Part shown: positions 6,058 through 18,940 of the stretch, one piece after another
Position numbering within the stretch: the first letter of the stretch is position 1
Layout: each line of letters begins with the position of its first letter
Assembly (NCBI RefSeq): GCF_029227855.1
Contig: NZ_CP074356.1
Strand: one strand, 5' to 3'
From: Escherichia coli
GTDB taxonomy: Bacteria > Pseudomonadota > Gammaproteobacteria > Enterobacterales > Enterobacteriaceae
DNA length: 64,000 bases
Position numbers and translations under genes: made by a program
Notes under the pieces: model-generated
Database searches by the model: none
What the model saw: the letters and a program-made list of their open reading frames with translations, nothing else
What the model was told of the DNA's origin: nothing

Positions 6058-7014
6058 ATGTCATACTCGCTTTTTGACAAAGACGAGCACTGGCATAAGC
6101 CAGAGCAGGCGTTTCTCACCGATGACCACCGGACCATTCTGCGCTTCGCCGTAGAGGCGCTAATGTCCGGTAAAGGAGCGGTGCTGGTGACGCTGGTGGA
6201 GATACGCGGCGGCGCGGCGCGCCCGCTCGGGGCGCAGATGGTGGTGCGCGAAGATGGTCGTTACTGCGGTTTTGTCTCTGGCGGCTGCGTGGAGGCCGCT
6301 GCCGCTTTTGAAGCGCTGGAGATGATGGGCTCAGGCCGCGATCGCGAAATTCGCTATGGTGAAGGTTCGCCGTGGTTTGACATCGTTCTGCCCTGCGGCG
6401 GTGGGATCACGCTGACGCTCCATAAACTACGCTCGGCACAGCCTCTGCTCGCCGTGCTGAACCGCCTGGAACAGAGAAAACCGGCGGGTCTGCGCTACGA
6501 TCCGCAAGCTCAATCGCTGGTGTGCCTGCCCACGCAAACCCGGACGGGCTGGAATCTCAATGGCTTTGAGGTGGGGTTCAGACCATGCGTCAGTCTGATG
6601 ATTTACGGACGTTCTCTTGAGGCGCAGGCAACCGCGAGTCTTGCAGCAGCCACAGGCTATGACAGCCATATCTTCGATCTTTTTCCGGCCTCAGCCAGCG
6701 CTCAGATCGATACCGATACGGCGGTCATTTTGCTGTGCCATGATCTCAACCGGGAGCTGCCAGTGTTGCAGGCCGCGCGAGAGGCAAAACCCTTTTATCT
6801 CGGCGCATTGGGCAGCTATCGAACCCACACTTTACGTCTGCAAAAGCTCCACGAGCTGGGATGGTCCAGGGAGGAGACAGCGCAAATCCGGGCACCCGTC
6901 GGGATATTCCCCAAAGCCCGGGATGCGCATACTCTGGCACTCTCCGTGCTGGCAGAAGTCGCCTCTGTACGTCTCCATCAGGAGGAGGATTCATGCCTGC
7001 CCCCGTCGTCCTGA
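6058..7014 (+). CDS. paoD: Molybdenum cofactor insertion chaperone PaoD (XdhC family)
   Basis: 318 aa XdhC/CoxI-like protein directly after paoC. Confidence 0.85.
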   Translation: MSYSLFDKDEHWHKPEQAFLTDDHRTILRFAVEALMSGKGAVLVTLVEIRGGAARPLGAQMVVREDGRYCGFVSGGCVEAAAAFEALEMMGSGRDREIRYGEGSPWFDIVLPCGGGITLTLHKLRSAQPLLAVLNRLEQRKPAGLRYDPQAQSLVCLPTQTRTGWNLNGFEVGFRPCVSLMIYGRSLEAQATASLAAATGYDSHIFDLFPASASAQIDTDTAVILLCHDLNRELPVLQAAREAKPFYLGALGSYRTHTLRLQKLHELGWSREETAQIRAPVGIFPKARDAHTLALSVLAEVASVRLHQEEDSCLPPSS

Positions 7015-7094
7015 TCCTTGCGGCCGGGCGTGGAGAGCGCTTTCTCGCCTCCGGGGGAAATACCCATAAATTAAGAGAAAAATCTGCAGTAGCC
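7005..7094 (+). pseudogene. 5' remnant of a MobA/MocA-like nucleotidyltransferase gene (about 28 codons), coupled to the paoD stop
   Basis: ATG overlapping the paoD end encodes MPAPVVLILAAGRGERFLASGGNTHKL (ILAAGxGxR NTP-transferase motif); similarity then stops and the frame runs into the 3' end of the opposite-strand transporter gene. Confidence 0.4.
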
Positions 7095-7193
7095 GTTTTA
7101 GAAAATCACCTAAATCGTTTAAAAGAGCACCCAACCCATAGTGGGCGCTCATCGCCTTGTGTAACTTATTCAGCAACGCGCGCCCTCGCCGGA

Positions 7194-8387
7194 CTAAAGC
7201 GCACCGGCCTTCTGGCGTGCGGTAACAAAGGTCAGTACGCCAGCGCAAAGGAGCAGCACGCTACTCATAGCAAACGTGCTCTGCCAGCCAAGGCGGTCAA
7301 ATACGATGCCTCCTGCTGTTGATCCAAGGGCGATGGAGAGCTGAATCACCGCGACCATGAGCCCGCCTCCGGCTTCGGCGTTGTCAGGCAACGTACGCGC
7401 AATCCATGTCCACCATCCGGTTGGCGCGGCGGTGGCCAGCATGCCCCAGAGTCCTAACAGCAGCGAGACCGTCCAGACGTGATGCCCGGTCAGCATCAGA
7501 CCGATAGCAATGACGGCCATCAGTCCGGGTATGGCCATCAGCGTGGGGTAGAATTTTCTGTTGAGAAATGCCGAAACAACCAGCGTGCCAATAAAACCGG
7601 CCACGCCGATAATCAGCAAAATCAACGACAAGCCTAAGGAATTAACCCGTGTCACCGACTCCAGAAACGGGCGCACATAGGTGAATAGTGCAAACTGCCC
7701 CATGAAAAACAGGCAGCAGGCTATCATGCCGACCACAACCATGCGGCGGCTAAATAAGCGGAATACCGCGCCACATGAAGTGTGGCTTTTATTCGCATCC
7801 ATGCTTGGCAGGCTGATGCACTGCCAGATAAAGGCGACAACCGCGATGGGCACCAGGCACAAGAAAGCGCCTCGCCATCCGACCGTAGCCCCCAGATAGC
7901 TTCCCAGCGGTGCGGCCACGACCGTCGCCAGCGCATTACCGGCGTTGAAAATTGCCAGCGCACGCGTGACCTGATGCTGCGGCACCAGACGAATCGCCGT
8001 TGCCGCTGACATCGACCAGAATCCGCCAATAGCCACACCAATCATCGCACGACCGACCATATACATCAGATAACTGGAAGCCAGCGCAATAATAAGCCCC
8101 GATACGGCCATCAGAACCGTCATCCCCAGCAGCAGGAACTTACGATTCATCTTTCCAGCTAGCGTTGAAAGCGTCAGGCTGGTCAGAACCGCCAGCGCGC
8201 CGGAGATAGCAATCCCCTGCCCTGCCAGCCCCTCCGTCACGCCTAAATCGCGGGTAATCGGCGTGAGCAGGCTGACGGGCATAAATTCAGAAGCAATCAG
8301 CACAAACACGCACAGGGTCATGGCAAAAATACCGCCCCAGTATGCGCGCTGATGATGAGGTGATAGTGTTTGGCTTAGTGTCGACAT
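7194..8387 (-). CDS. Major facilitator superfamily transporter (12 predicted TM helices)
   Basis: 397 aa, hydrophobic throughout with MFS-like glycine-rich loops. Confidence 0.7.
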   Translation of the reverse strand: MSTLSQTLSPHHQRAYWGGIFAMTLCVFVLIASEFMPVSLLTPITRDLGVTEGLAGQGIAISGALAVLTSLTLSTLAGKMNRKFLLLGMTVLMAVSGLIIALASSYLMYMVGRAMIGVAIGGFWSMSAATAIRLVPQHQVTRALAIFNAGNALATVVAAPLGSYLGATVGWRGAFLCLVPIAVVAFIWQCISLPSMDANKSHTSCGAVFRLFSRRMVVVGMIACCLFFMGQFALFTYVRPFLESVTRVNSLGLSLILLIIGVAGFIGTLVVSAFLNRKFYPTLMAIPGLMAVIAIGLMLTGHHVWTVSLLLGLWGMLATAAPTGWWTWIARTLPDNAEAGGGLMVAVIQLSIALGSTAGGIVFDRLGWQSTFAMSSVLLLCAGVLTFVTARQKAGAL

Positions 8388-8462
8388 AGTGAAATTTCAC
8401 AAAGATCAGGATAAAAGCCACCAGCCTATGGCCGGTGGCTTTGCATCAATTCAGGAGAGGTT

Positions 8463-9620
8463 TTATTTCAGTTTGGTCTGGAAAAATTGTTCGAACTTCG
8501 CGAAAGGTATTTTTCCGGCCACGTTATCGTACAGGTCCACGTGATTTGCCCCTGGTACCACCACCAACTCTTTGTCTTTACTGCCAACCGCCTTGTAAGC
8601 ATCTTCAGCAAAATAGCGTGAATGTGCTTTCTCACCGGTCACAATCAGCGTCGGAATGGTGATTTCACTGGCGTAGCTCAACAGCGGCATATTCATAAAT
8701 GACAGCGGCATCGTTGCCGTCCACGCCCCGGTAGAGTTAACGGAACGTTCGTGGAAGCCGCGCGGCATGCGATAGTAGTCAAAGAACTCTTTCAGTACCG
8801 GATGAGGATTTGCCGGCAGCGTTTCTGGCAGAATGCGCTCGCCCGCACTGACCTTGCCGTTGCTGTCGACATTAATATCATGACCACCGTGAGCGAACGT
8901 TCCGCTCTGCGCATCCTTCCAGCGCTGTTCATTCAGATATTGCAGAACAGCACGACGGTCGGCGGTAGAATAACGGTCTTTGCCATCCCCCACACCATGG
9001 CCCATCGCCCGGCTCATGTCATACATCACGCTGGTAGCTACCGCTTTAACGCGGGTATCCATCGCCGCGTCGTTCAGCGCCATGCCGCCCCAGCCACAAA
9101 TACCGAGCAGCCCGATACGGTTGCGATCTACCTCTTTTTGCAGCCCTAAGAAATCCACTGCCGCGCTGAAATCTTCAGTGTTGATATCCGGTGAGGCGAC
9201 GTTTCGCGGATAGCCGCCGCTTTCCCCGGTGTAAGAAGGATCGAACGCCAGGGTAACAAACCCTCGTTCCGCCAGCGTCTGCGCATACAGGCCGCTGGAT
9301 TGCTCTTTCACCGCGCCAAATGACCCACTGACCGCAATCGCCGCCAGCTTGCGATCGCCACGGTCTTTAGGCAGGTAAAGATCGCCCACTAAGGTGATGC
9401 CATATCGGTTCGGGAACGAGACTTTACGGTGATCGACTTTCTGGCTCTCGGCGAACGTTTTATCCCATTTATCTGTCATGGACACAGGGGCATTAGGATT
9501 GGTTGAATCAGCATAACTCATTGTCGTGACTCCACTTAATGATGCGAAAAGCAGCATGGTCGGCATCGCGGTTTTTAGCGTGCGGGTGAAGGCTTTCATA
9601 AAAATCCCCATAAAAAACAA
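8463..9620 (-). CDS. Secreted alpha/beta-fold hydrolase; alternative start at 9599 (MKAF...)
   Basis: 385 aa; N-terminal signal peptide; nucleophile-elbow-like motif GICGWGG; upstream of the MFS gene on the same strand. Confidence 0.55.
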   Translation of the reverse strand: MFFMGIFMKAFTRTLKTAMPTMLLFASLSGVTTMSYADSTNPNAPVSMTDKWDKTFAESQKVDHRKVSFPNRYGITLVGDLYLPKDRGDRKLAAIAVSGSFGAVKEQSSGLYAQTLAERGFVTLAFDPSYTGESGGYPRNVASPDINTEDFSAAVDFLGLQKEVDRNRIGLLGICGWGGMALNDAAMDTRVKAVATSVMYDMSRAMGHGVGDGKDRYSTADRRAVLQYLNEQRWKDAQSGTFAHGGHDINVDSNGKVSAGERILPETLPANPHPVLKEFFDYYRMPRGFHERSVNSTGAWTATMPLSFMNMPLLSYASEITIPTLIVTGEKAHSRYFAEDAYKAVGSKDKELVVVPGANHVDLYDNVAGKIPFAKFEQFFQTKLK

Positions 9621-9785
9621 CAGAGAGATACAGGTTTCCGACGGACAACGCTGCGGTGCTTTACTTTGATGGGGTCATTATAGTGAGCAGAATTAGTGCT
9701 GATTAGGGGGCGATTAATGCTAAGATTAATACCATATTGTTATAAATTAATGTGGAGATTGCCGGCATGAAGGGGGGATGTTTCA

Positions 9786-10670
9786 ATGGCGAAAAGGGAG
9801 AACTACAACGAGCTGTACCTGTTTATGCAGGTGGTGCGGGAAGGCAGCTTTACCGCAGCGGCTCAGCGGCTGGGTCTTGCTCAGTCAGGAGTCAGCCGTT
9901 CTGTTCGCGAGCTTGAAGAAAGGCTGGGTGTCCAGCTGCTAGTGCGCACCACGCGTAAACTGTCGCTGACACAAGCAGGCGAGCAGCTCTACCAGAAGAC
10001 GGCATCTGGATTTGAAATGTTAGATCTTGGGCTTGCCACGCTGGCGCATTATCGAGAGACGCCCTCCGGCACGGTGCGTATCAATGCCAGCCAGCACGCG
10101 ATTGATAAATGCCTGCTGCCAAAGCTGGCGGTATTTAAACAGAGATATCCTGATATCCGGCTTGAACTGATAAATGAGAGCCGGTTCGTCGATATCATCG
10201 AGGAAAGATTCGATGCAGGTGTCCGCCTGGGGCCTGAAGTCGGCCAGGGTATGGTCGCGGTACGCATCACGCCCGATATGGAGATGGCAATTGTGGGGAC
10301 TCCGGAACATTTTCGTCGCTATGGTTTTCCGCAAACCCCGGCGGATTTAAAGGCGCATCCCTGTATCGCCTATCAGTTTGCCGACGGCAGCGTATACCAG
10401 TGGGAACTCAATCAGGATGATAAAAAAATCACTCATCGCCCTGAAGGGCAATGGGCCCTATCCGACAGCTATATGGAAGCAGAAGCCGCCCGGCTGGGCC
10501 TCGGATTGGCCTATGTTCCTGTTGAACTGGTCGCGGATGATTTAGAACACGGTAAGCTTATCAGGGTGTTGCAGCGTTACAGCCTGCGAATGGAGGGATT
10601 GTTTCTCTATTACCCTCATCGCAACGTCTCCCCCGCCCTGCGGATGGTCATTGATACATTGAAAATCTGA
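9786..10670 (+). CDS. LysR-family transcriptional regulator
   Basis: 294 aa; N-terminal HTH (FTAAAQRLGLAQSGVSRSVRELEERLGVQLL); divergent from the hydrolase-MFS pair. Confidence 0.85.
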   Translation: MAKRENYNELYLFMQVVREGSFTAAAQRLGLAQSGVSRSVRELEERLGVQLLVRTTRKLSLTQAGEQLYQKTASGFEMLDLGLATLAHYRETPSGTVRINASQHAIDKCLLPKLAVFKQRYPDIRLELINESRFVDIIEERFDAGVRLGPEVGQGMVAVRITPDMEMAIVGTPEHFRRYGFPQTPADLKAHPCIAYQFADGSVYQWELNQDDKKITHRPEGQWALSDSYMEAEAARLGLGLAYVPVELVADDLEHGKLIRVLQRYSLRMEGLFLYYPHRNVSPALRMVIDTLKI

Positions 10671-11103
10671 ACGTTAACAACGACCGACTCTTCACTGTGC
10701 AAAATTGTGTCAGGTAGTCCCTCTGCGTTCAATTCCAGGGTCTGCTTTGAGCGAGAAAGAGGGGACTATCCAGCAATGGAGATCACCCAAAAGAAAAAAC
10801 CACCTGGCTCCCTCGACAACCTTCATCCGGGCATTTAGCCTCAATCAACATTTTTATATCTGTCAGGTTACTTCATTATGAAAACTGATCATCATCGTTG
10901 TTTTTGTTGCAATAGTAGAATACGCGTATTTATTCCTCCATCTCTATTAATAACGGCAATAAACTGTTCACTTCACTGATATTTAAAATATGTATCCTTT
11001 TCAAGCTGTTCAGCGGCGTAAGAAAAAGTATTAATTATGAATTCGATGATTTAACCATATCTGTCTGATTGGTAATCATCCGTGATTAATGCTGGTCTAT
11101 TGA

Positions 11104-12024
11104 TTACGCCAGAACCCTCTCTAGCTTATTCACCGCCGCCACATACTTCGCCGGATTTTTATCTTTAAGCACCGCCAGATTGCGTTGCTTCCAGCGAATA
11201 GCCGGAAGATGCTGAATTTCAGGATAGCGATACCGCGACCAGTCAGGGCTGTTTTGCTTAAAACTGAGCAAGAACTCGCGATCCAGATCCGTAAGATGTG
11301 ACTTCAACGCCTGCGGCAGCAAAGTCGTTACTGACAGAAGCGATTCCAGCGACGTTTCCTGTTGCGTCATCCCTGAAAATTCCTGCGCGTACAACGTGGC
11401 GATCCGCTCTGTATCCCAGTTTGGAGCCAGCAACTCGGCGATGGGGCGGGGATGGCCTGCCAGATAACAAAGAAAACCGTCAAAGATCTCCCGCATCAGT
11501 CCCGGTTTCTCCAGCATATTCAGCACATCAAACAGATCGCGCGGGTGCTGACGATCAAGCGCAGCGCAGATTTTACCGCCATAAAGATCCGCCAGCGAGA
11601 CGACACTCATGGTGGTGAAGCCATACTCCATTTCCACACGTTCGCACACAGGCATTTCTGCCGGAGGCAACAACAGCCCGCGCCAGACCGGGCTAACCTC
11701 GATCTTAATCTTTGCATCAGCGGTATTCACAATGATGCGCTTTTCATCCGCTTTATTTTCCTGCCGAATCGCGGTGATCCCCGGTCTGCCGTTCAGCGAT
11801 GCAGTAATCCTCTTCAAAGCGTCGTTGATAGCCGCCAAATCAGTATCGCGATCCGCAAAGCTCTTGTACGCCAGATCAATATCCACCGACAGACGGGGAA
11901 AATCCTGCACAAACAAATTGATTGCGGTGCCGCCTTTCAACGCGAAACAGGACTCCTTCGCCACATACGGCAGAGCGGCCATCAACAGTTTGACCTGCCG
12001 GGCATAGCTATCACGCAGATCCAT
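11104..12024 (-). CDS. abiEii: AbiEii-type nucleotidyltransferase toxin (DUF1814 family)
   Basis: 306 aa; NTase motif GGTAINLF...RLSVDIDL; 14-nt overlap with upstream partner. Confidence 0.7.
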   Translation of the reverse strand: MDLRDSYARQVKLLMAALPYVAKESCFALKGGTAINLFVQDFPRLSVDIDLAYKSFADRDTDLAAINDALKRITASLNGRPGITAIRQENKADEKRIIVNTADAKIKIEVSPVWRGLLLPPAEMPVCERVEMEYGFTTMSVVSLADLYGGKICAALDRQHPRDLFDVLNMLEKPGLMREIFDGFLCYLAGHPRPIAELLAPNWDTERIATLYAQEFSGMTQQETSLESLLSVTTLLPQALKSHLTDLDREFLLSFKQNSPDWSRYRYPEIQHLPAIRWKQRNLAVLKDKNPAKYVAAVNKLERVLA

Positions 12025-12814
12025 CTTCGACTCCTTCCGGTTTAAATGCGCGTGGAACAGTAATTTGATAATCCGGCTCCAGCCAGCCGCCGGGTATGAT
12101 TTGCCGCTTTCCCGTACCTGTTTCTATACCGCTTTGATCAATATACTGAAAATAAGGGTGTCCATTACGCCGGGCAAGGTAAAGCATCACCCGGTTGGTT
12201 TTAACCGAATGGCTGGCGCGAAGCAGTGCCTGCAATTTGCGTGGGCTGAGAAGATTCAACCCCTGAAACAGAGCATCGGCATGTTCGAACGAGATTAACG
12301 AAGGAACGCCGCAGGCGATCTCATACGCGGCCAGTTCCGGAACACTGCCTGCTAACTGGCGGTCGCCAATTTTCAGTTCCGTAGTAAATGGCGTTACATC
12401 AGCGGTAAGGCCTGACGTATACAGCGTGACAAACGTTGCGGATTGTTCAAAGGCAGAAAACCATCCCGGCAGTTTGACGTAAGCCGGAAGCGCGAGCCAG
12501 ACCTGCGGCTTACCCTGTTCGGTATAGTGCGCATGACCCTGAAGCGCAAGGCTGGTTAGCCCCGCCACCCGAACAGGCTTTTCCCACTGCGATTGCAGGC
12601 AGTAAACCGCATCCACCCAATCCGGTTCACGACCCGTCCGGCAGTATACGCCGTGAGCGATCCGCCTGAGCCAGCCATTCTTCACATAGAGATAAGAGAG
12701 CTTACGATCTATGCCGTTGCGGGTAAGCCATGACTGGAGCAGCACCTGGCCGGGTAGCGTGTGCTGCATCAGCCAGTTTAGATAGTTTGGCAACTGTCGC
12801 CTCTGAATAGACAT
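12011..12814 (-). CDS. abiEi: AbiEi-type antitoxin / transcriptional regulator
   Basis: 267 aa; sits immediately upstream of and overlapping the NTase gene, the usual AbiE arrangement. Confidence 0.6.
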   Translation of the reverse strand: MSIQRRQLPNYLNWLMQHTLPGQVLLQSWLTRNGIDRKLSYLYVKNGWLRRIAHGVYCRTGREPDWVDAVYCLQSQWEKPVRVAGLTSLALQGHAHYTEQGKPQVWLALPAYVKLPGWFSAFEQSATFVTLYTSGLTADVTPFTTELKIGDRQLAGSVPELAAYEIACGVPSLISFEHADALFQGLNLLSPRKLQALLRASHSVKTNRVMLYLARRNGHPYFQYIDQSGIETGTGKRQIIPGGWLEPDYQITVPRAFKPEGVEDGSA

Positions 12815-13108
12815 TAGTACAAATATTTAAACCAGTGTAGATTCAGGGATACGCCACAGCAAGAAATAGTTTACTTATTCCTCATTTTGTCGACTAAAAA
12901 TCGACATTAAACAAAAAATTCAAACTTAATCACTTTCGGGAAAAATGTGACAAATATATGCTCGGACTGGTTGCGGGGAGCGTGTAACATGGATACAAAT
13001 CAAAATTATTGCCAGCCTCACTGATGGATTACTGGTGTCAAGAGCCCCCCTTCGGGCATGAAACGGCTGGCTAATTCTGTACAGACTGTAATCTAAGGAC
13101 GATAACGC

Positions 13109-14884
13109 ATGACATATCAGGCAATTTTCACTGGCTGGGATGATCTGACGATTGAAGACCTTCTGGTCGCTTACCGGAAAGCAAAAGCCGATAGCTTCTT
13201 TGAGAATACATTTCCTGTTGCTATCAAATTTGCCGAGTATGAGCAGGAATTACTTGAAAACCTGCAAAAACTCTTAGATCTTTTGCAGAGCGAAGATGGA
13301 TTCAGTAGCAATAAGAAGTTGATTGGCAAATTTCGTTTGTTACCGAAAAAATTAACCACAAAGAAAAAACATGAATCCCAAAATGGACACGTCCACTTTT
13401 CTAATCCTAAACGAGCAGCCGACCATTTATTTAATAATTTTGATCTGATACCAGAGTTTCGTATTATTGGTGACTTCCCGGTTGATAGTCACATTATCTC
13501 TGCACTATGGATTAACATGGTCGGGCATAAATTTGATGCCAGCTTAGATAACTGTTGCTATGGCGCGCGGCTAAAGCGTATTCGTAATGATGAATTATTT
13601 AGCGATGAGCAGGATAATCCATTCCATATCAGTGCCGTGGGTTCTTTTAGCCCCTACTTCCAGCCCTACCAAAAATGGCGTGGTGATGGCTTAAAAGCTA
13701 TACGTGACGAGTTGGAAAAAGATCGTGACATTATCGCCGCCTCACTGGATTTAAAAAGTTACTATCATTTTATTGATCCACTGGCTATAACCTCTGATGA
13801 TCTCTATAACACACTAAACATAAAACTGACTGAGGATGAAAAAGCGTTTACTGCACAGTTAGCAGTATTCTTAAAGCACTGGTCTGACGGCGCAGCGGCA
13901 TTTGGAAAGAAAATAGCGTACAAAACACCTGTTATTAATGGTGGTCTGGTCATTGGATTAACAGCCAGTCGGATCATTTCAAATATATTGCTACACCATT
14001 GGGATAAATTAGTCATTGAAAAACTATCACCAATTCACTACGGTCGTTATGTCGATGATATGTTCCTTGTAATACGCGATACAGGGACAATTACTAATAA
14101 TCACGAATTTATGTTATTGCTGCAAGATAGGCTTGGCAATGATTGCGTTTATTTGAAAAACGAGCAAAAACAAATATGGCAAATACAGCAGGGCGAGCAT
14201 TTCCAGGGTAAGACCACCATCCAGTTACAATCCGATAAGCAAAAACTTTTCGTGCTTCAAGGGAGGGCTGGAATAGACCTGCTCGACAGTATCGAAAAGG
14301 AGATCTACGAGCTTTCTAGTGAACACCGCTTGATGCCTTCACCGGATCAACTGGAACACTCCACCGCAGCTAAAGTCCTTTCCGCTGCCGGTAGTGTAGG
14401 TGAAAATGCCGATACTCTGCGCCGTGCGGATGGATTAACCATTCGTCGTTTGGGCTGGTCACTGCAATTACGCTACGTTGAAACACTGGCACGAGATCTG
14501 CCTCCAAGTGAATGGAAAGAACAGCGGGAAGAGTTTTATCAGTTTGCCTACAACCATATTCTTAGGGCTGATAATCTATTTGCACATTTTAGTTATCTGC
14601 CAAGGCTGCTTGGCTTTGCTATCAGTATGAATGAATGGCAGCACGCGGAAAAAATTGTACTTAAAGCTTACGAATCCATCAACCTGTTGGCATCGGTGAT
14701 TACTTCAGGTAAGGAAGTGAATATAAATGGTTGCAAAACTCGAGCAGTAAATGATCTTTGGCGCTGTATAAAAGGCACATTAAGCTGGCTATTTGTTGAT
14801 GCAGCGACACGATATTACAGTCCTGACAGATTATTTCTTGATAAACGTTCAAAGAAAGAAGAGTGCCTTGCGGATACATTTTAA
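13109..14884 (+). CDS. Reverse transcriptase (UG/Abi-type defence RT); likely the N-terminal part of an RT-nitrilase fusion interrupted at a T4 tract
   Basis: 591 aa; RT motifs in order: FRLLPKK (motif 1), LDLKSYYHFID (A), GGLVIGLTASRIISNIL (B'), YGRYVDDMFLV (C, YxDD); stop codon TAA begins inside TTTT at 14879-14882. Confidence 0.8.
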   Translation: MTYQAIFTGWDDLTIEDLLVAYRKAKADSFFENTFPVAIKFAEYEQELLENLQKLLDLLQSEDGFSSNKKLIGKFRLLPKKLTTKKKHESQNGHVHFSNPKRAADHLFNNFDLIPEFRIIGDFPVDSHIISALWINMVGHKFDASLDNCCYGARLKRIRNDELFSDEQDNPFHISAVGSFSPYFQPYQKWRGDGLKAIRDELEKDRDIIAASLDLKSYYHFIDPLAITSDDLYNTLNIKLTEDEKAFTAQLAVFLKHWSDGAAAFGKKIAYKTPVINGGLVIGLTASRIISNILLHHWDKLVIEKLSPIHYGRYVDDMFLVIRDTGTITNNHEFMLLLQDRLGNDCVYLKNEQKQIWQIQQGEHFQGKTTIQLQSDKQKLFVLQGRAGIDLLDSIEKEIYELSSEHRLMPSPDQLEHSTAAKVLSAAGSVGENADTLRRADGLTIRRLGWSLQLRYVETLARDLPPSEWKEQREEFYQFAYNHILRADNLFAHFSYLPRLLGFAISMNEWQHAEKIVLKAYESINLLASVITSGKEVNINGCKTRAVNDLWRCIKGTLSWLFVDAATRYYSPDRLFLDKRSKKEECLADTF

Positions 14885-16316
14885 TCATATTTCACAAAGT
14901 CTGACGAATCTAAAGGATTTACTGGATCTTCGCTTTGATTCAGCAGATTTTTATTTAAAAGCGCCATTGGTAGCTCGAGCTGATTTAGCAAAGGAACCTT
15001 ATAAACAGATCGTAAAGAGTCAGTCGGCAGAAAAACTTGTTAATCAGCGTGATAGTAAAAAAGAAGTTAAAATACTGAAATTAATGAGCGACTCATCGCT
15101 TATTGATATTGACGTTATTAAGCTATTTTTGAAATCAACCAAGAATACCCGACTGGAAAAAGTGGCTAAAGGAAATCGTAAGAACGAAAGTTACCTACCT
15201 TACATTTTCCCTACACGTCCTTTAACACCCGCTGAAATATCAGAACTGGCCCCCGAATGTGTTGGATTACCCTCCACATCCGACAAAAAACCAGATGAGA
15301 GACCGTCCACCATTTGGGCAAAATATACTCAAGCATTACGCGGAGTATGGATCAAACCGACGTTGCTAGCATCGGAGCAGGACTCAGATGAAGCGACAAA
15401 AAAAGCTCGGCCTAAGAAATTCATTCATATTGGCACAGACAGGAAACATAAAGTTGTCGTTGCGCTAACCAGCATTAAAACAGAGGAGGACGACTGGGCT
15501 AAAATGGCCTGCAATAAATCTAACTTGTCCCGTTCAAGGTACCAGCGGATTTCTGAACTGGTTAATGCAACATTGAAACTATCTCCTAAACCTGATTATG
15601 TTTTATTCCCTGAGCTTTCAATCCCGTTACGCTGGGTTAACAGTATTGCTGATCGTTTGAGTTCGGCGGGTATCAGTCTAATTGCGGGAACAGAATACCG
15701 CCACTTAGACGATAATCAACTGAAGAGTGAGGCCGTACTTGTCCTTTCAGATAACAGACTCGGCTATCCAGCGAGTGTCAAAATATGGCAACCCAAGCTG
15801 GAACCCGCCGTAGGTGAAGATGAGGCATTATTTTCAACTTATGGTAAGTCTTGGGATTCGACACTTAATGTTAAACAACGTAAGCCGGTATATATTCATC
15901 ACGGCGTCAATTTTGGCGTTATGATTTGCTCTGAACTCCAGAATAGTAAAGCGAGGATCCGTTTTCAGGGCGCACTCGATGCATTAATGGTATTGAGCTG
16001 GAATAAAGATCTAGATACGTTTGCATCGTTGATTGAATCAGCAGCGCTGGATATTCATGCCTATACTATTTTAGTGAATAACCGAAAATACGGCGATAGT
16101 CGCGTACGTTCCCCGGCAAAAGAACCCTTTATGCGTGATATTGCTCGTGTGAAGGGCGGTGATAATGACTTTGTGGTCGCTGCAACGCTGGATATCGACT
16201 CGTTAAGGGCATTTCAGAGCAGGGCAAAACGCTGGCCTAAAGGCGGCGATAAATTCAAACCGTTACCTGAAGGATTCCAGTTGGCAAAGAACCGCAAAAA
16301 GCTACCGCCAAAATAA
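14793..16316 (+). CDS. Nitrilase / CN-hydrolase domain protein; probable C-terminal part of the RT-nitrilase protein (frame +1 relative to the RT ORF)
   Basis: 507 aa as called (TTG start, no convincing RBS); nitrilase-like triad context YVLFPELSIP (Glu), VKIWQPK (Lys), GVMICSELQN (Cys); overlaps RT ORF by 92 nt. Confidence 0.75.
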   Translation: MLMQRHDITVLTDYFLINVQRKKSALRIHFNHISQSLTNLKDLLDLRFDSADFYLKAPLVARADLAKEPYKQIVKSQSAEKLVNQRDSKKEVKILKLMSDSSLIDIDVIKLFLKSTKNTRLEKVAKGNRKNESYLPYIFPTRPLTPAEISELAPECVGLPSTSDKKPDERPSTIWAKYTQALRGVWIKPTLLASEQDSDEATKKARPKKFIHIGTDRKHKVVVALTSIKTEEDDWAKMACNKSNLSRSRYQRISELVNATLKLSPKPDYVLFPELSIPLRWVNSIADRLSSAGISLIAGTEYRHLDDNQLKSEAVLVLSDNRLGYPASVKIWQPKLEPAVGEDEALFSTYGKSWDSTLNVKQRKPVYIHHGVNFGVMICSELQNSKARIRFQGALDALMVLSWNKDLDTFASLIESAALDIHAYTILVNNRKYGDSRVRSPAKEPFMRDIARVKGGDNDFVVAATLDIDSLRAFQSRAKRWPKGGDKFKPLPEGFQLAKNRKKLPPK

Positions 16317-16478
16317 GAAACTGATTTTCGCTATTAATAATCAGGGTATTTTTGCGTGAGATGTCGGTAAACATGATGTAGCCCTTGCCACTCATGACCA
16401 ATCGCAGTATCTTTCTCCCGCGCCTGCAAAATCAGGCGTCGGGATTAGCCTCCTGAAGAAATCTTATCGGCGACACAT

Positions 16479-16500
16479 GACGCGCCAGCGTCTTTTTTTG
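16479..16500 (+). terminator. Possible intrinsic terminator downstream of the nitrilase ORF
   Basis: Short GC hairpin GACGC-GCCA-GCGTC followed by T7. Confidence 0.3.
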
Positions 16501-16662
16501 TGTTGTTCGCACGGTTACATCTCAATGGTGGGCCGGGCGGGGGCGTCGCAAGACGCGCCAGTGTCCGATAAGGCTGGTAAGGCTAACCCTGCCCGGTTCC
16601 ACCACCCGCGAGATTAGCCTCTCCGGTGGTGGCTTGAACACCCACTTATCGGAGGTTGCCCT

Positions 16663-17133
16663 ATGGCTACAATCCTCACCACTGACAGCGATTTACTCGA
16701 TCTATTGACCGTCCCCTTCAATGCCACCACGGATTTCACTGTCCTTGCTGACTACTGCGCCCGCTTTGCCGAAACCCTGATTGAAACCGACGATCCAGCG
16801 CTACGACTGGCGCTCTGCGGGCGGCTTCACGCGGCTCTTGCGCTACTGCAACCCACACTACACGACCCCATCCCACCGCATCTTACCGAAAGCCTGACCG
16901 TGGATACCCTTCCCGCCACACCAGAGCACTTTATTTCCGAACCTGATTCCTTGTGCGAATACTGCCTCGCACTACTCCAGCTTCTGCTGGAACGTCCGGC
17001 GGAACCAAAAATGGAGCAAACCCTGACCGGGCTGCTGTGTGAGCTGGTCTGGTATTTCACGGAAGGACTCAAAGCCCCACGCTGGCTGCGTACCGCCGAC
17101 GGCGTAAAATTTATCAGCGAGGTGGCCGCATGA
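16663..17133 (+). CDS. Hypothetical protein, no recognisable domain
   Basis: 156 aa ORF with a good RBS (GGAGG); stop overlaps the start of the Ner-like fragment. Confidence 0.5.
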
Positions 17134-17270
17134 TGCAACAGGACTGGCATTCCGCCGACATTATTGCGGTGCTGAAAAAGCGGGGAACGCCTCTGGCGGC
17201 ACAGAGAAAAACTCATTGCGGAAGCGCTGTAAATATCGCCAGAAATCATCTGGCCTTCAAGGTACTTTGA
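17130..17270 (+). pseudogene. Ner/Nlp-like DNA-binding protein gene, internally deleted and frameshifted
   Basis: N-terminus [24 protein letters not shown] is Ner/Nlp-like; similarity then breaks, and a second Ner-like stretch (REKLIAEAL) appears in another frame. Confidence 0.5.
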
Positions 17271-17311
17271 TAGCAAAGGCAAGCAGGCTGGTTCAGTCCA
17301 GTGTTTCTCTT

Positions 17312-17410
17312 CTTGCATTTTCAGAAATGGGAGGCTGGGAGTCTATCGAAATGGTTCGTCGATATGCTCACCTCGCGCCTAATCACCTTACCGAACACGC
17401 ACGGCAAATA
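17312..17410 (+). pseudogene. C-terminal remnant of a tyrosine integrase gene
   Basis: Peptide [30 protein letters not shown] matches the conserved C-terminal region around the catalytic Tyr (RYAHL) of phage integrases; no upstream integrase sequence present. Confidence 0.55.
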
Positions 17411-17496
17411 GACTCAGTCCTGAACCCATCGGTCCCAAATTTGTCCCAGTCAAAAAATAAGGAAGGTACTAATGATGTGTAACTTATTGATTTTAA

Positions 17497-17572
17497 TGGT
17501 GCCGATAAGAGGAGTCGAACCTCCGACCTTCGCATTACGAATGCGCTGCTCTACCAACTGAGCTATATCGGC
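17497..17572 (-). tRNA. thrW: tRNA-Thr, anticodon CGU
   Basis: 76-nt cloverleaf GCCGATATAGCTCAGTTGGTAGAGCAGCGCATTCGTAATGCGAAGGTCGGAGGTTCGACTCCTCTTATCGGCACCA with encoded CCA; anticodon loop CATTCGTAATG. Confidence 0.9.
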
Positions 17573-17686
17573 CCTGAAAGGACATGTTCACGAACGTGAA
17601 TCACGGTGGACAAGGTTAAAACTAACCGGGCGATGCGTCAATGGCCTTGTGAATCAAATGGCTACTTTTGCATCACCCGGTTTTAT

Positions 17687-18940
17687 TTACGCACGAATGG
17701 TGTAATCACCAATGCCGATCCACTTGTAAGTGGTCAGTGCTTCCAGCCCCATTGGGCCACGCGCGTGGAGTTTTTGTGTGCTTACCGCCACTTCCGCACC
17801 CAGTCCAAACTGGCCGCCGTCGGTAAAACGCGTAGAGGCGTTAACGTAAACAGCGGACGAATCCACTTCGTTAACAAAACGCTGGGCGTTGCGCATATCG
17901 CGGGTCAGGATCGCATCGGAGTGTTGTGTGCCGTGTTCACGAATATGGGCGATGGCATCGTCAAGATCGCTGACGATTTTGACGTTCAAATCTAATGACA
18001 GAAACTCATCGTCATACTCTTCGGCTTTAACAGCCACCACCTTCGCGGGGCCTGCCTGCAACTGCGCCAGCGCAGCTACATCTGCGTGTAATGTCACGCC
18101 GCTTTCCGCCATTTGCTTGCTTAATGCGGGCAGGAAGCTATCGGCGATGTTTTTATTTACCAGCAACGTTTCTACCGTATTACATGTGCTCGGACGCTGA
18201 GTTTTCGCGTTGACAATTACTTTCAGGGCTTCAGCGATCTCTGCACTTTCATCAACGTAAATATGGCATACGCCTATACCGCCTGTGATCACCGGGATTG
18301 TCGACTGTTCGCGGCACAGCTTATGCAGGCCAGCGCCACCACGCGGGATCAGCATGTCGATGTATTTATCCATACGCAGCATTTCACTGACCAGCGCGCG
18401 GTCAGGATTATCAATCGCCTGTACTGCGCCTGCCGGTAAATCGCAGGATTTCAGGGCGTCCTGAATCACCGCCACCGTTGCAGCGTTAGTGCGACAGGTT
18501 TCTTTGCCACCACGCAGGATCACTGCGTTACCGGTTTTCAGGCACAGCGAAGCGACATCAACCGTCACGTTCGGGCGAGCTTCATAAATCACGCCAATCA
18601 CCCCCAGCGGTACGCGACGACGCTCCAGACGCAGACCGCTGTCCAGCACACCACCATCAATCACCTGCCCCACCGGATCGGCGAGGTTGCACACCTGGCG
18701 CACATCATCGGCAATGCCTTTCAGCCGTGCGGGCGTCAGTGCCAGACGGTCAAGCATCGCTTCGCTAAGGCCATTGGCACGCGCGTCAGCAACATCCTGG
18801 GCGTTAGCGTTGAGGATGATTTCGCTTTGTGCTTCCAGTTCATCGGCGATTTTTTCCAGCACGCGATTTTTTTCGCGACTGGAGAGTTGCGCTAATTTAT
18901 ACGAGGCTTGCTTCGCGGCAATGCCCATTTGTTCCAGCAT
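17687..18940 (-). CDS. proA: Gamma-glutamyl phosphate reductase
   Basis: 417 aa; aldehyde dehydrogenase-family catalytic Cys region; conserved proBA operon. Confidence 0.9.

Follow-up and report, generated by a model that had tools for sequence, protein, structure and literature searches.

Between paoD and the threonine tRNA gene thrW, the stretch of Escherichia coli DNA analyzed here (64,000 nucleotides of contig NZ_CP074356.1, hereafter the window) contains an element at positions 11,103–17,478 that consists of an AbiEii-AbiEi gene pair, a cargo slot with a reverse transcriptase (RT)–nitrilase gene, an RNA control module with two downstream genes, and the tail of an integrase. Gene calls were taken from ARAGORN, Pfam, PADLOC, National Center for Biotechnology Information protein families (NCBIfam), PHROG, and Rfam, together with the RefSeq/Prokaryotic Genome Annotation Pipeline (PGAP) annotation of a 100% identical genome (JNEC-KY178), and positions 6,500–18,500 were used as a megablast query against 5,426 complete E. 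coli genomes; individual comparison loci are given L numbers. The features listed in an earlier note on this DNA, i.e., the AbiE pair, RT and nitrilase open reading frames (ORFs), an orphan ORF, integrase and Ner-like fragments, and thrW, are all present. The only tRNA gene found by ARAGORN is thrW itself, a tRNA-Thr(CGT) at 17,497–17,572 on the minus strand with its 3′ end toward lower coordinates, so elements integrated at thrW sit to its left. The complete stretch from paoD to thrW was found in 258 of the 5,426 genomes, and the interval is therefore variable and not conserved core sequence of most E. coli.

The AbiE genes, of the type IV toxin-antitoxin/abortive-infection kind, form an overlapping bicistron on the minus strand, with a 14-nt overlap and full-length profile matches for both products. 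AbiEii, the nucleotidyltransferase toxin (11,104–12,024; 306 aa), is intact and matches Pfam PF08843 (E = 3e-35) and the PADLOC profile (E = 4e-116, profile positions 3–289 of 290); AbiEi, the antitoxin and regulator (12,011–12,793, with the ORF extending to 12,814; 260 aa), matches Pfam AbiEi_3 and AbiEi_3_N and the PADLOC profile (E = 5e-80). Relative to homologs, the ratio of nonsynonymous to synonymous substitution rates (dN/dS) is 0.08–0.11 for AbiEii and 0.14–0.16 for AbiEi. The intergenic region upstream of abiEi (12,794–13,017), which other cargo variants have in common and where homology with the sequence type 131 (ST131) island locus L003 ends at 13,017, contains a weak 22-nt imperfect inverted repeat (12,803–12,846; 73% complementary) that is a candidate AbiEi operator. 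By analogy with other AbiE systems, AbiEii would be a toxin restrained and autoregulated by AbiEi, leading to abortive infection or to stabilization of the island.

Beyond this region lies the cargo slot (13,018–16,383), a low-GC segment delimited by the breakpoints against a variant that carries a type I restriction-modification (R-M) system, and the RT-nitrilase gene (13,109–16,316, plus strand) is its only gene. The gene is split into an RT ORF of 591 aa (13,109–14,884) and a nitrilase, or carbon-nitrogen (C-N) hydrolase, ORF of 505 aa (14,799–16,316), which match positions 9–515 (577 bits) and 502–901 (453 bits) of the same 907-position PADLOC profile, RT_UG5-nitrilase PDLC03780. PADLOC alone gave the gene a class: Pfam returned no useful match for either ORF or for the intact 1,069-aa protein, NCBIfam returned only weak subthreshold RT matches, and the PADLOC Drt1a (UG1) profile scored only 49 and 43 bits with the two ORFs. 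An intact allele, a single 3,210-nt ORF encoding 1,069 aa, occupies the same position in strain 405 and differs from the window by two substitutions and by two T residues missing from the window, where pairwise alignment with L008 places a run of four T residues (14,875–14,878) against six in the intact allele. A 100-nt probe across this site found 260 E. coli records, 259 of which have the form longer by 2 nt, and only the genome studied here matches the probe at 100%. The split thus reflects either a mutation private to this genome or an error of assembly in the homopolymer, not a two-gene architecture, and what the earlier note had called the RT-nitrilase locus is a single UG5-large gene with a frameshift private to this genome.

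A genuine and still active two-gene system would resemble the UG5-small systems, in which the nitrilase is encoded by a separate ORF (PMC9226505), and it could draw on the ATG at 14,799 that opens the second frame and on the preservation of both catalytic motifs, YVDD in the RT (GRYVDDMF) and Cys-x-Glu in the nitrilase (VMICSELQ). We consider it improbable to a high degree, because the fused UG5-nitrilase profile scores 577 and 453 bits with the two ORFs versus 134 and 149 bits for the UG5-small or RT-associated-nitrilase profiles, because the split is a 2-nt loss from a T6 run with two other differences from the intact allele and in one record of 260, and because the second ORF starts with ~26 codons that do not follow the reading frame of the intact protein.

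UG5-large systems are RTs fused to a C-N hydrolase, sometimes accompanied by a transmembrane protein (PMC9226505). The gene at thrW conforms to this type, which belongs to class 3 of the UG/Abi RTs, as a single protein of the ~1,000–1,070-aa kind, with a YVDD-type RT and a C-terminal C-N hydrolase, and matches the profile end to end, but in the window it is frameshifted whereas the other 259 records have the fused 1,069-aa form. Its dN/dS between lineages is 0.15. The cassette at 13,018–16,383 contains no other ORF of at least 50 aa and hence no transmembrane partner for the RT-nitrilase. In this it differs from the validated “RT-nitrilase + 1TM” system of E. coli E101, which comes from a P4 hotspot (Rousset et al. 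2022, PMC9122126) and has a transmembrane effector reported as necessary by Mestre et al. (PMC9226505). It resembles instead DRT11, the UG5-large RT of Sinorhizobium meliloti without a transmembrane partner, which is reported to be sufficient for defence, with no noncoding RNA detected (bioRxiv 10.64898/2025.12.16.694600); the catalytic motifs of the two were compared by description only. By analogy with DRT11, the intact RT-nitrilase would act as a single-protein, abortive-infection-like antiphage enzyme.

To the right of the slot, an RNA leader on the plus strand precedes the downstream genes. Rfam identifies an isrK/P4 seqA-like leader RNA at 16,420–16,498 (RF01394; 68.8 bits, gathering threshold 50) and a C4/P4 CI-type antisense RNA at 16,521–16,609 (RF01695; 71.1 bits, gathering threshold 45; minimum free energy −51.1 kcal/mol), and the c4-a1b1 family RF03163 matches at 43.8 bits, just below its gathering threshold of 46.7. 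The P4 immunity region, L003, and the tRNA-Asn island L010 give the same pair of isrK and C4 matches; IsrK corresponds to seqA and C4 to the CI RNA of P4 (PMC3632133, PMC4825925). A promoter-like site (TTGCCA-17-TATCTT; 16,385–16,413), located by consensus scan, precedes the leader, and an intrinsic terminator (stem 16,479–16,492 followed by T7) lies at the end of the isrK-like RNA. The scan for sigma-70 promoters and terminators over the island was not enriched over shuffled sequences, and only these two sites, which coincide with the Rfam-defined leader, were used. Conservation of the module starts at the −35 box of the promoter-like site: in the junction alignment of the window, L003, L010, L015, and P4 it begins at CTTGCC.

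The C4 RNA presents two loops, b′ (16,564–16,572) and a′ (16,580–16,586), that face two sets of targets. Targets a1 (16,445–16,451) and b1 (16,463–16,470) lie within the isrK-like leader, and the second set comprises a2 (16,614–16,620) and b2 (16,645–16,653), the latter overlapping the GGAGG Shine-Dalgarno sequence of hyp156. Complementarity between loops and targets extends over 7, 8, 7, and 9 nt, and none of 20,000 shuffles reached all four. Across an alignment of four elements (the window, the ST131 island GI-thrW, P4, and the tRNA-Asn island L010), pairing is complete (60 of 60 and 63 of 63 loop-target cells), with changes on both sides in 10 of 15 and 10 of 16 loop-target pairs, far above shuffled and slid controls. 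The b determinant, CTTATCGG in the window versus GTTACAGG in ST131, differs at all three places where it occurs; since the loop and both targets have changed together relative to ST131, the switch was under selection after the island variants diverged.

This layout is shared with P4 (seqA-CI-seqC), the immI region of P1 and P7 (a1b1-c4-a2b2-icd-ant), and Gifsy-1 isrK, all of which have a promoter, an isrK/seqA leader with terminator, a C4/CI RNA, and second targets overlapping the ribosome-binding site. The downstream genes differ, being hyp156 and a Ner-type helix-turn-helix (HTH) gene in the window, epsilon and alpha in P4, icd and ant in P1, and orf45 and anrP in Gifsy-1, and the module in the window is truncated ~140 nt into the HTH gene. 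On the model of these systems, the promoter would drive the isrK/seqA-like leader and the C4/CI-type RNA, with C4 processed from the leader transcript; the C4 loops would pair with the a and b sites and, as in P4 and P1, terminate transcription and block the hyp156 ribosome-binding site, so that neither hyp156 nor the Ner-type HTH gene would be expressed.

PGAP annotates an “ash family protein” coding sequence at 16,453–16,617, and we flag this annotation as overlapping the C4/CI-type RNA gene. Its match to Pfam Phage_ASH is below threshold (23.1 versus 26 bits), hundreds of other E. coli annotations contain the same call, and in some other Enterobacterales the ORF is called in frame with hyp156 to give “ash family” proteins of 199–215 aa. 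A short leader peptide, like orf45 of Gifsy-1, may also be made alongside the RNA. A 55-nt portion of the isrK/a1b1 leader (16,403–16,457) is 93% identical to unannotated sequence in many E. coli chromosomes and in a plasmid, indicating further copies of such a leader in other islands.

The first gene downstream of the leader is hyp156 (16,663–17,133, plus strand; 156 aa). The earlier note, which does not mention the leader, had called it an orphan; it is in fact the first gene of a conserved module behind the antisense-RNA leader, and its family of ~153-aa proteins comprises 646 homolog clusters across Enterobacterales, none of them named or with a Pfam domain. It is under purifying selection (dN/dS about 0.10–0.13). 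Its AlphaFold2 model is a four-helix bundle with a hairpin (predicted local distance difference test score 76.8), for which Foldseek returned only generic helical-bundle matches in the Protein Data Bank (E > 0.03). The stop codon of hyp156 is coupled through ATGA to the start of an HTH_35 (Ner-type) gene that is truncated and frameshifted (17,130–17,271, plus strand; Pfam PF13693 over the first 33 aa, E = 1.5e-5; phrog_769 repressor). A full 84-aa homolog is encoded in L010 (E = 3e-33), homology with which runs to 17,271. Mu Ner and Nlp belong to the HTH_35 family, on which ground the label “Ner-like” would be reasonable. Intact relatives at tRNA-Asn have the order variable cargo, hyp153, HTH_35, 62-aa ORF, Integrase_1-like gene, P4-type integrase, and tRNA, which identifies 16,384–17,271 of the window as the 5′ half of a module for control and integration that is conserved next to tRNA genes. 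In the E. coli tRNA-Asn/mtfA islands L011–L014, upstream of position 9,001, the hyp153-HTH_35 module is preceded by different variable cargo (a Trypsin_2/CTD4–MComp1–AAA_23/AAA_13 cluster and PAAR-toxin/DUF2169 genes), and in several island families the module seems to form the fixed border of the cargo region. Rfam also detects, in L010, an EFASI RNA (15,975–16,103; 99 bits) and an isrC RNA (12,110–12,232; 145 bits).

The module gives way to the C-terminal fragment of a tyrosine integrase, oriented toward the tRNA (17,279–17,482, plus strand; 204 nt, 67 codons), which PGAP calls a pseudogene and which matches PHROG integrase and positions 137–171 of the 172-position Pfam Phage_integrase profile. 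Over 17,324–17,482 it shares 98% identity with the 3′ end of the gene for a 372-aa integrase in L005, and the match continues at 98% to 17,700; this integrase gene stands at the end of a lambdoid prophage integrated at thrW in L005 and L007. The fragment is probably the leftover of a different element, judging from this match, and the earlier attribution of it to the island itself is not demonstrable. It ends within the attachment-site (att) core, a 63-nt sequence at 17,479–17,541 made up of the last 45 nt of thrW and the 18 nt that follow it, which is repeated at the far ends of the islands in L003 (6,189–6,251), in L006, and in the K-12 element CP4-6. The partial thrW repeat that the earlier note had suggested looking for as a far boundary is lacking: k-mer and blastn-short searches of the window with the thrW 3′ end and flank found no att repeat of at least 14 nt. 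A 13-mer, TGTGTAACTTATT, at 7,158–7,170, between paoD and the neighboring major facilitator superfamily (MFS) gene, is identical to 17,476–17,488, just downstream of thrW, and was rejected as an att remnant, as it has an E value of ~0.1 and occupies the same backbone position in L002 and L006, where the surroundings of thrW differ.

The left end of the element is a deletion junction at 11,103–11,112, where homology with the chromosomal backbone ends at 11,112 and that with the island starts at 11,103, the 10-bp microhomology being ATTACGCCAG. Less reduced relatives indicate what has gone. The ST131 type keeps, at the distal end, an integrase pseudogene with 24% identity to P4 Int and a far repeat that consists of a second integrase tail with the att core; strain 06-00048 (L015) retains 225 nt of the distal integrase beside intact backbone and has 2,933 bp more than the window between ATTACGCCAG and ATTACTCCAG. 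In the window the distal integrase of L003 and L015 is missing, and the 67-codon fragment is the only integrase sequence in the element, which thus contains no functional integrase. A 2,933-bp deletion at the microhomology, added to what was probably an earlier loss in an intermediate of the L015 type, explains the absence of the far repeat; the distal integrase and the far att repeat were lost by deletions, probably stepwise. The element can now spread only vertically or through homologous recombination of its flanks.

The earlier note had begun the island at 7,005, immediately beside paoD (6,058–7,014), and had passed over the genes nearest to it: the MFS transporter (7,194–8,321, minus strand), an alpha/beta hydrolase (8,463–9,521, minus strand), and a LysR regulator (9,786–10,670, plus strand), all called from Pfam and RefSeq, followed by a ykgR-like fragment (10,882–10,950; RefSeq). 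None of these belongs to the island. In strain PKF11 (L002), paoD and the MFS-hydrolase-LysR cluster are followed by ~460 bp of other backbone and then by an empty thrW, so the segment 7,015–11,102 stays when thrW is unoccupied and the element starts at 11,103. The segment is present in 912 of the 5,426 genomes (17%; at least 80% coverage). In SF10 and E. coli B types, paoD is followed within 2 kb by a LysR fragment and thrW, and in O157:H16 Santai and strain 6EVA hypothetical, short-chain dehydrogenase/reductase (SDR), and second LysR genes stand between the first LysR gene and thrW, the second LysR gene being the ancestor of K-12 yagP. The thrW site is unoccupied in L002 and L004 and has alternative occupants in L005, L006, L007, and K-12. 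Homology between the window and PKF11, SF10, E. coli B types, Santai, and 6EVA runs up to 11,112 and resumes at 17,479, 18 nt from the 3′ end of thrW, so that island sequence abuts the tRNA. By genome comparison, the paoD-thrW interval is made of two layers, a patchy chromosomal backbone (7,015–11,102) and a tRNA-anchored element (11,103–17,478). The MFS-hydrolase-LysR cluster (7,150–10,700) is also present in O157:H7 and missing from K-12, which keeps only the separate LysR fragment yagP.

Base composition follows these layers in part. The compositional discontinuity sought by the earlier note exists but is confined to 13.0–16.4 kb, with a GC content of 0.42 and third-codon-position GC (GC3) of 0.39. 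The remainder is host-like: GC is 0.53–0.54 for the AbiE genes, 0.56 for the RNA module, and 0.523 for 7,015–11,102, where GC3 is like that of the pao genes, and all three parts lie within 0.52–0.57 around the window mean of 0.533.

The closest described relative is the thrW island of ST131 (EC958), named GI-thrW, whose type I R-M system is EcoMIII (PMC4659465, PMC5654935). About 730 genomes, mostly ST131, carry the same scaffold, its slot occupied by a type I R-M system. The left part in common comprises AbiEii-AbiEi and 204 nt of intergenic sequence (11,104–13,017; ~93.5% nucleotide identity) and the right part 16,384–17,278 (~90% overall, ~88–90% over isrK/C4-hyp156); site, integrase tail, and slot edges are likewise the same. 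The two islands differ in cargo (hsdRMS in ST131, the UG5-large RT-nitrilase in the window), in the distal integrase pseudogene and 63-nt far att repeat that ST131 retains and the window lacks, and in the C4 b specificity described above, with both targets changed to match. The chromosomal position is that of hotspot #33 of Hochhauser, Millman & Sorek (2023), yagP-proA at tRNA_Thr_CGT; the searchable text and tables of that catalog include AbiEii and P4-like satellites at this hotspot and contain no description of the anatomy of this remnant, its RNA module, or its RT-nitrilase variant (PMC10121019). K-12 holds CP4-6 (262,898–297,205) between thrW and yagP/paoD, as the earlier note had stated, with the same attachment site and an integrase gene, intF, at the end distal to thrW. 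That the content of the window differs from CP4-6 is also borne out, since the 34-kb K-12 element has unrelated content and no similarity beyond the 63-nt att repeat. Kinship with CP4-6 was rejected on this ground and because the distal integrase of L003 is 22% identical to IntF.

The slot has a third kind of occupant in strain 32F4 (L016), where AbiEi is followed by DptFGH and an AIPR gene; the region at 12,067–21,853 of L016 comprises three small HTH genes, DptF-DptG-DptH, and the AIPR family gene. Compared with strain 06-00048, the RT-nitrilase cassette of the window is ~1.5% diverged (synonymous divergence, dS, 0.046), and its flanks are 5–10% diverged, with dS of 0.14–0.27 overall, 0.14–0.17 for the AbiE genes and 0.25 for hyp156. 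Divergence changes from one level to the other no more than ~200 bp from the slot edges. A cassette so much less diverged than its flanks has moved between diverged scaffolds. Inspection of the slot junctions for flanking repeats that would suggest site-specific exchange found none, and right-side conservation starts at the promoter −35 box, so ordinary homologous recombination stays the default explanation for cassette exchange.

Taken together, these comparisons make it very probable that an island of the GI-thrW family, integrated at thrW in hotspot #33, left 11,103–17,478 as a composite remnant that can no longer move, composed of the AbiE pair, the cargo slot, the RNA control module, and the integrase tail, with its distal end lost. 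Both the island family and the hotspot are already documented, and the element is an ordinary, decayed example. In this respect the earlier description stands: the element is tRNA-anchored and has kept its defence cargo while losing mobility, only integrase and HTH fragments being left and the far att repeat absent.

Several points weigh against this reading or qualify parts of it. AbiE is not known to defend E. coli, and the AbiE pair could serve mainly as an island-stabilizing addiction module. Defence activity and RNA-switch function are predictions from sequence. An assembly error may underlie the 2-nt deletion, which lies in a homopolymer; the RT-nitrilase gene would then be intact. The backbone status of 7,015–11,102 rests on E. 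coli genomes, and at 17% prevalence the segment could be an older acquisition. Whether the integrase tail is the island's own or foreign is judged from mosaic similarity. Finally, hyp156 matched nothing in Pfam, PADLOC, NCBIfam, or PHROG and could be assigned no function.

The RNA module invites a further suggestion, which we offer as speculative and on balance unlikely. The isrK/C4-hyp156-Ner module may be a P4-type RNA immunity switch that still works and is maintained by selection although the island has no integrase left, and its C4 RNA might silence in trans any incoming islands or satellites with the same immunity type that compete for thrW; alternatively, the module might be the fixed right border of a slot through which defence cassettes (RT-nitrilase, type I R-M, Dpt) pass between diverged scaffolds. 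A switch that still works would be consistent with the concerted change of loop and targets since the split from ST131 and with the hyp156 dN/dS of ~0.1, and a slot border with the contrast between the cassette (dS 0.046) and its flanks (dS 0.14–0.27) in the two lineages.

We regard as very unlikely a descent from a P4-like phage satellite, in which the RT-nitrilase would have come from the defence hotspot of the satellite. P4-like satellites appear among the catalogued elements of hotspot #33 (PMC10121019), one P4 hotspot has yielded a UG5-large RT-nitrilase (PMC9122126), and the isrK/C4 leader is organized as in P4, with a 36-nt stretch 94% identical. IsrK-C4 systems, however, exist outside P4, in P1, P7, N15, and lambdoid prophages (PMC3632133), and hyp156, the HTH protein, and the integrase fragment are unlike P4 epsilon, ORF151, ORF106, alpha, Vis, and Int (BLASTP E > 1). 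A tblastn search with hyp156 of 50,697 phage records found a single unannotated 1.5-kb fragment, and intact relatives of the module continue to HTH_35, the Integrase_1-like gene, and integrase, while primase, psu, delta, and sid are all missing from the 9 kb examined. BLASTP of the island proteins against all P4 proteins was negative except for an overlap between “ash” and the cI ORF, which reflects the RNA gene, and P4 ancestry was rejected.

That the whole interval 7,005–17,572 is one accessory island inserted at thrW could be argued from its variability throughout, the MFS-hydrolase-LysR cluster included, and from the different element in K-12, but it is almost certainly wrong, because that cluster stays by paoD when thrW is empty (L002), is also kept where unrelated elements lie beyond further backbone genes (L006, L015, L016), matches the pao operon in GC and GC3, and is separated from AbiE in less deleted relatives by the hypothetical, SDR, and second LysR genes and the distal island integrase, and because the 13-nt tRNA-flank match at 7,158 is at chance level and present in empty-site strains too.

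As the remnant of a GI-thrW-family island, the element leaves the current understanding of defence islands unchanged. It is a worked example of the decay of an island at a tRNA hotspot, in which the distal integrase and att site have been lost by microhomology deletion and the proximal module has been truncated, while the defence genes and the RNA switch stay under purifying selection. What it adds is specific: a corrected boundary, a private frameshift, a UG5-large cargo gene without a transmembrane partner, the behavior of the cargo slot, and an unannotated isrK/C4 module. This form of the RT-nitrilase is present at one fixed locus in ~5% of complete E. coli genomes, enteroaggregative E. coli 042 included, and this locus offers a convenient natural setting in E. 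coli in which to ask whether the minimal DRT11-like architecture works in enterobacteria too.

Outside the interval, Rfam detects an IS009 RNA at 985–1,185 on the minus strand (187.8 bits; gathering threshold 117), in a low-GC stretch upstream of the pao operon (0.42–0.43 at 1,000–2,000), and an IS009 RNA is also found near yagU in L003.

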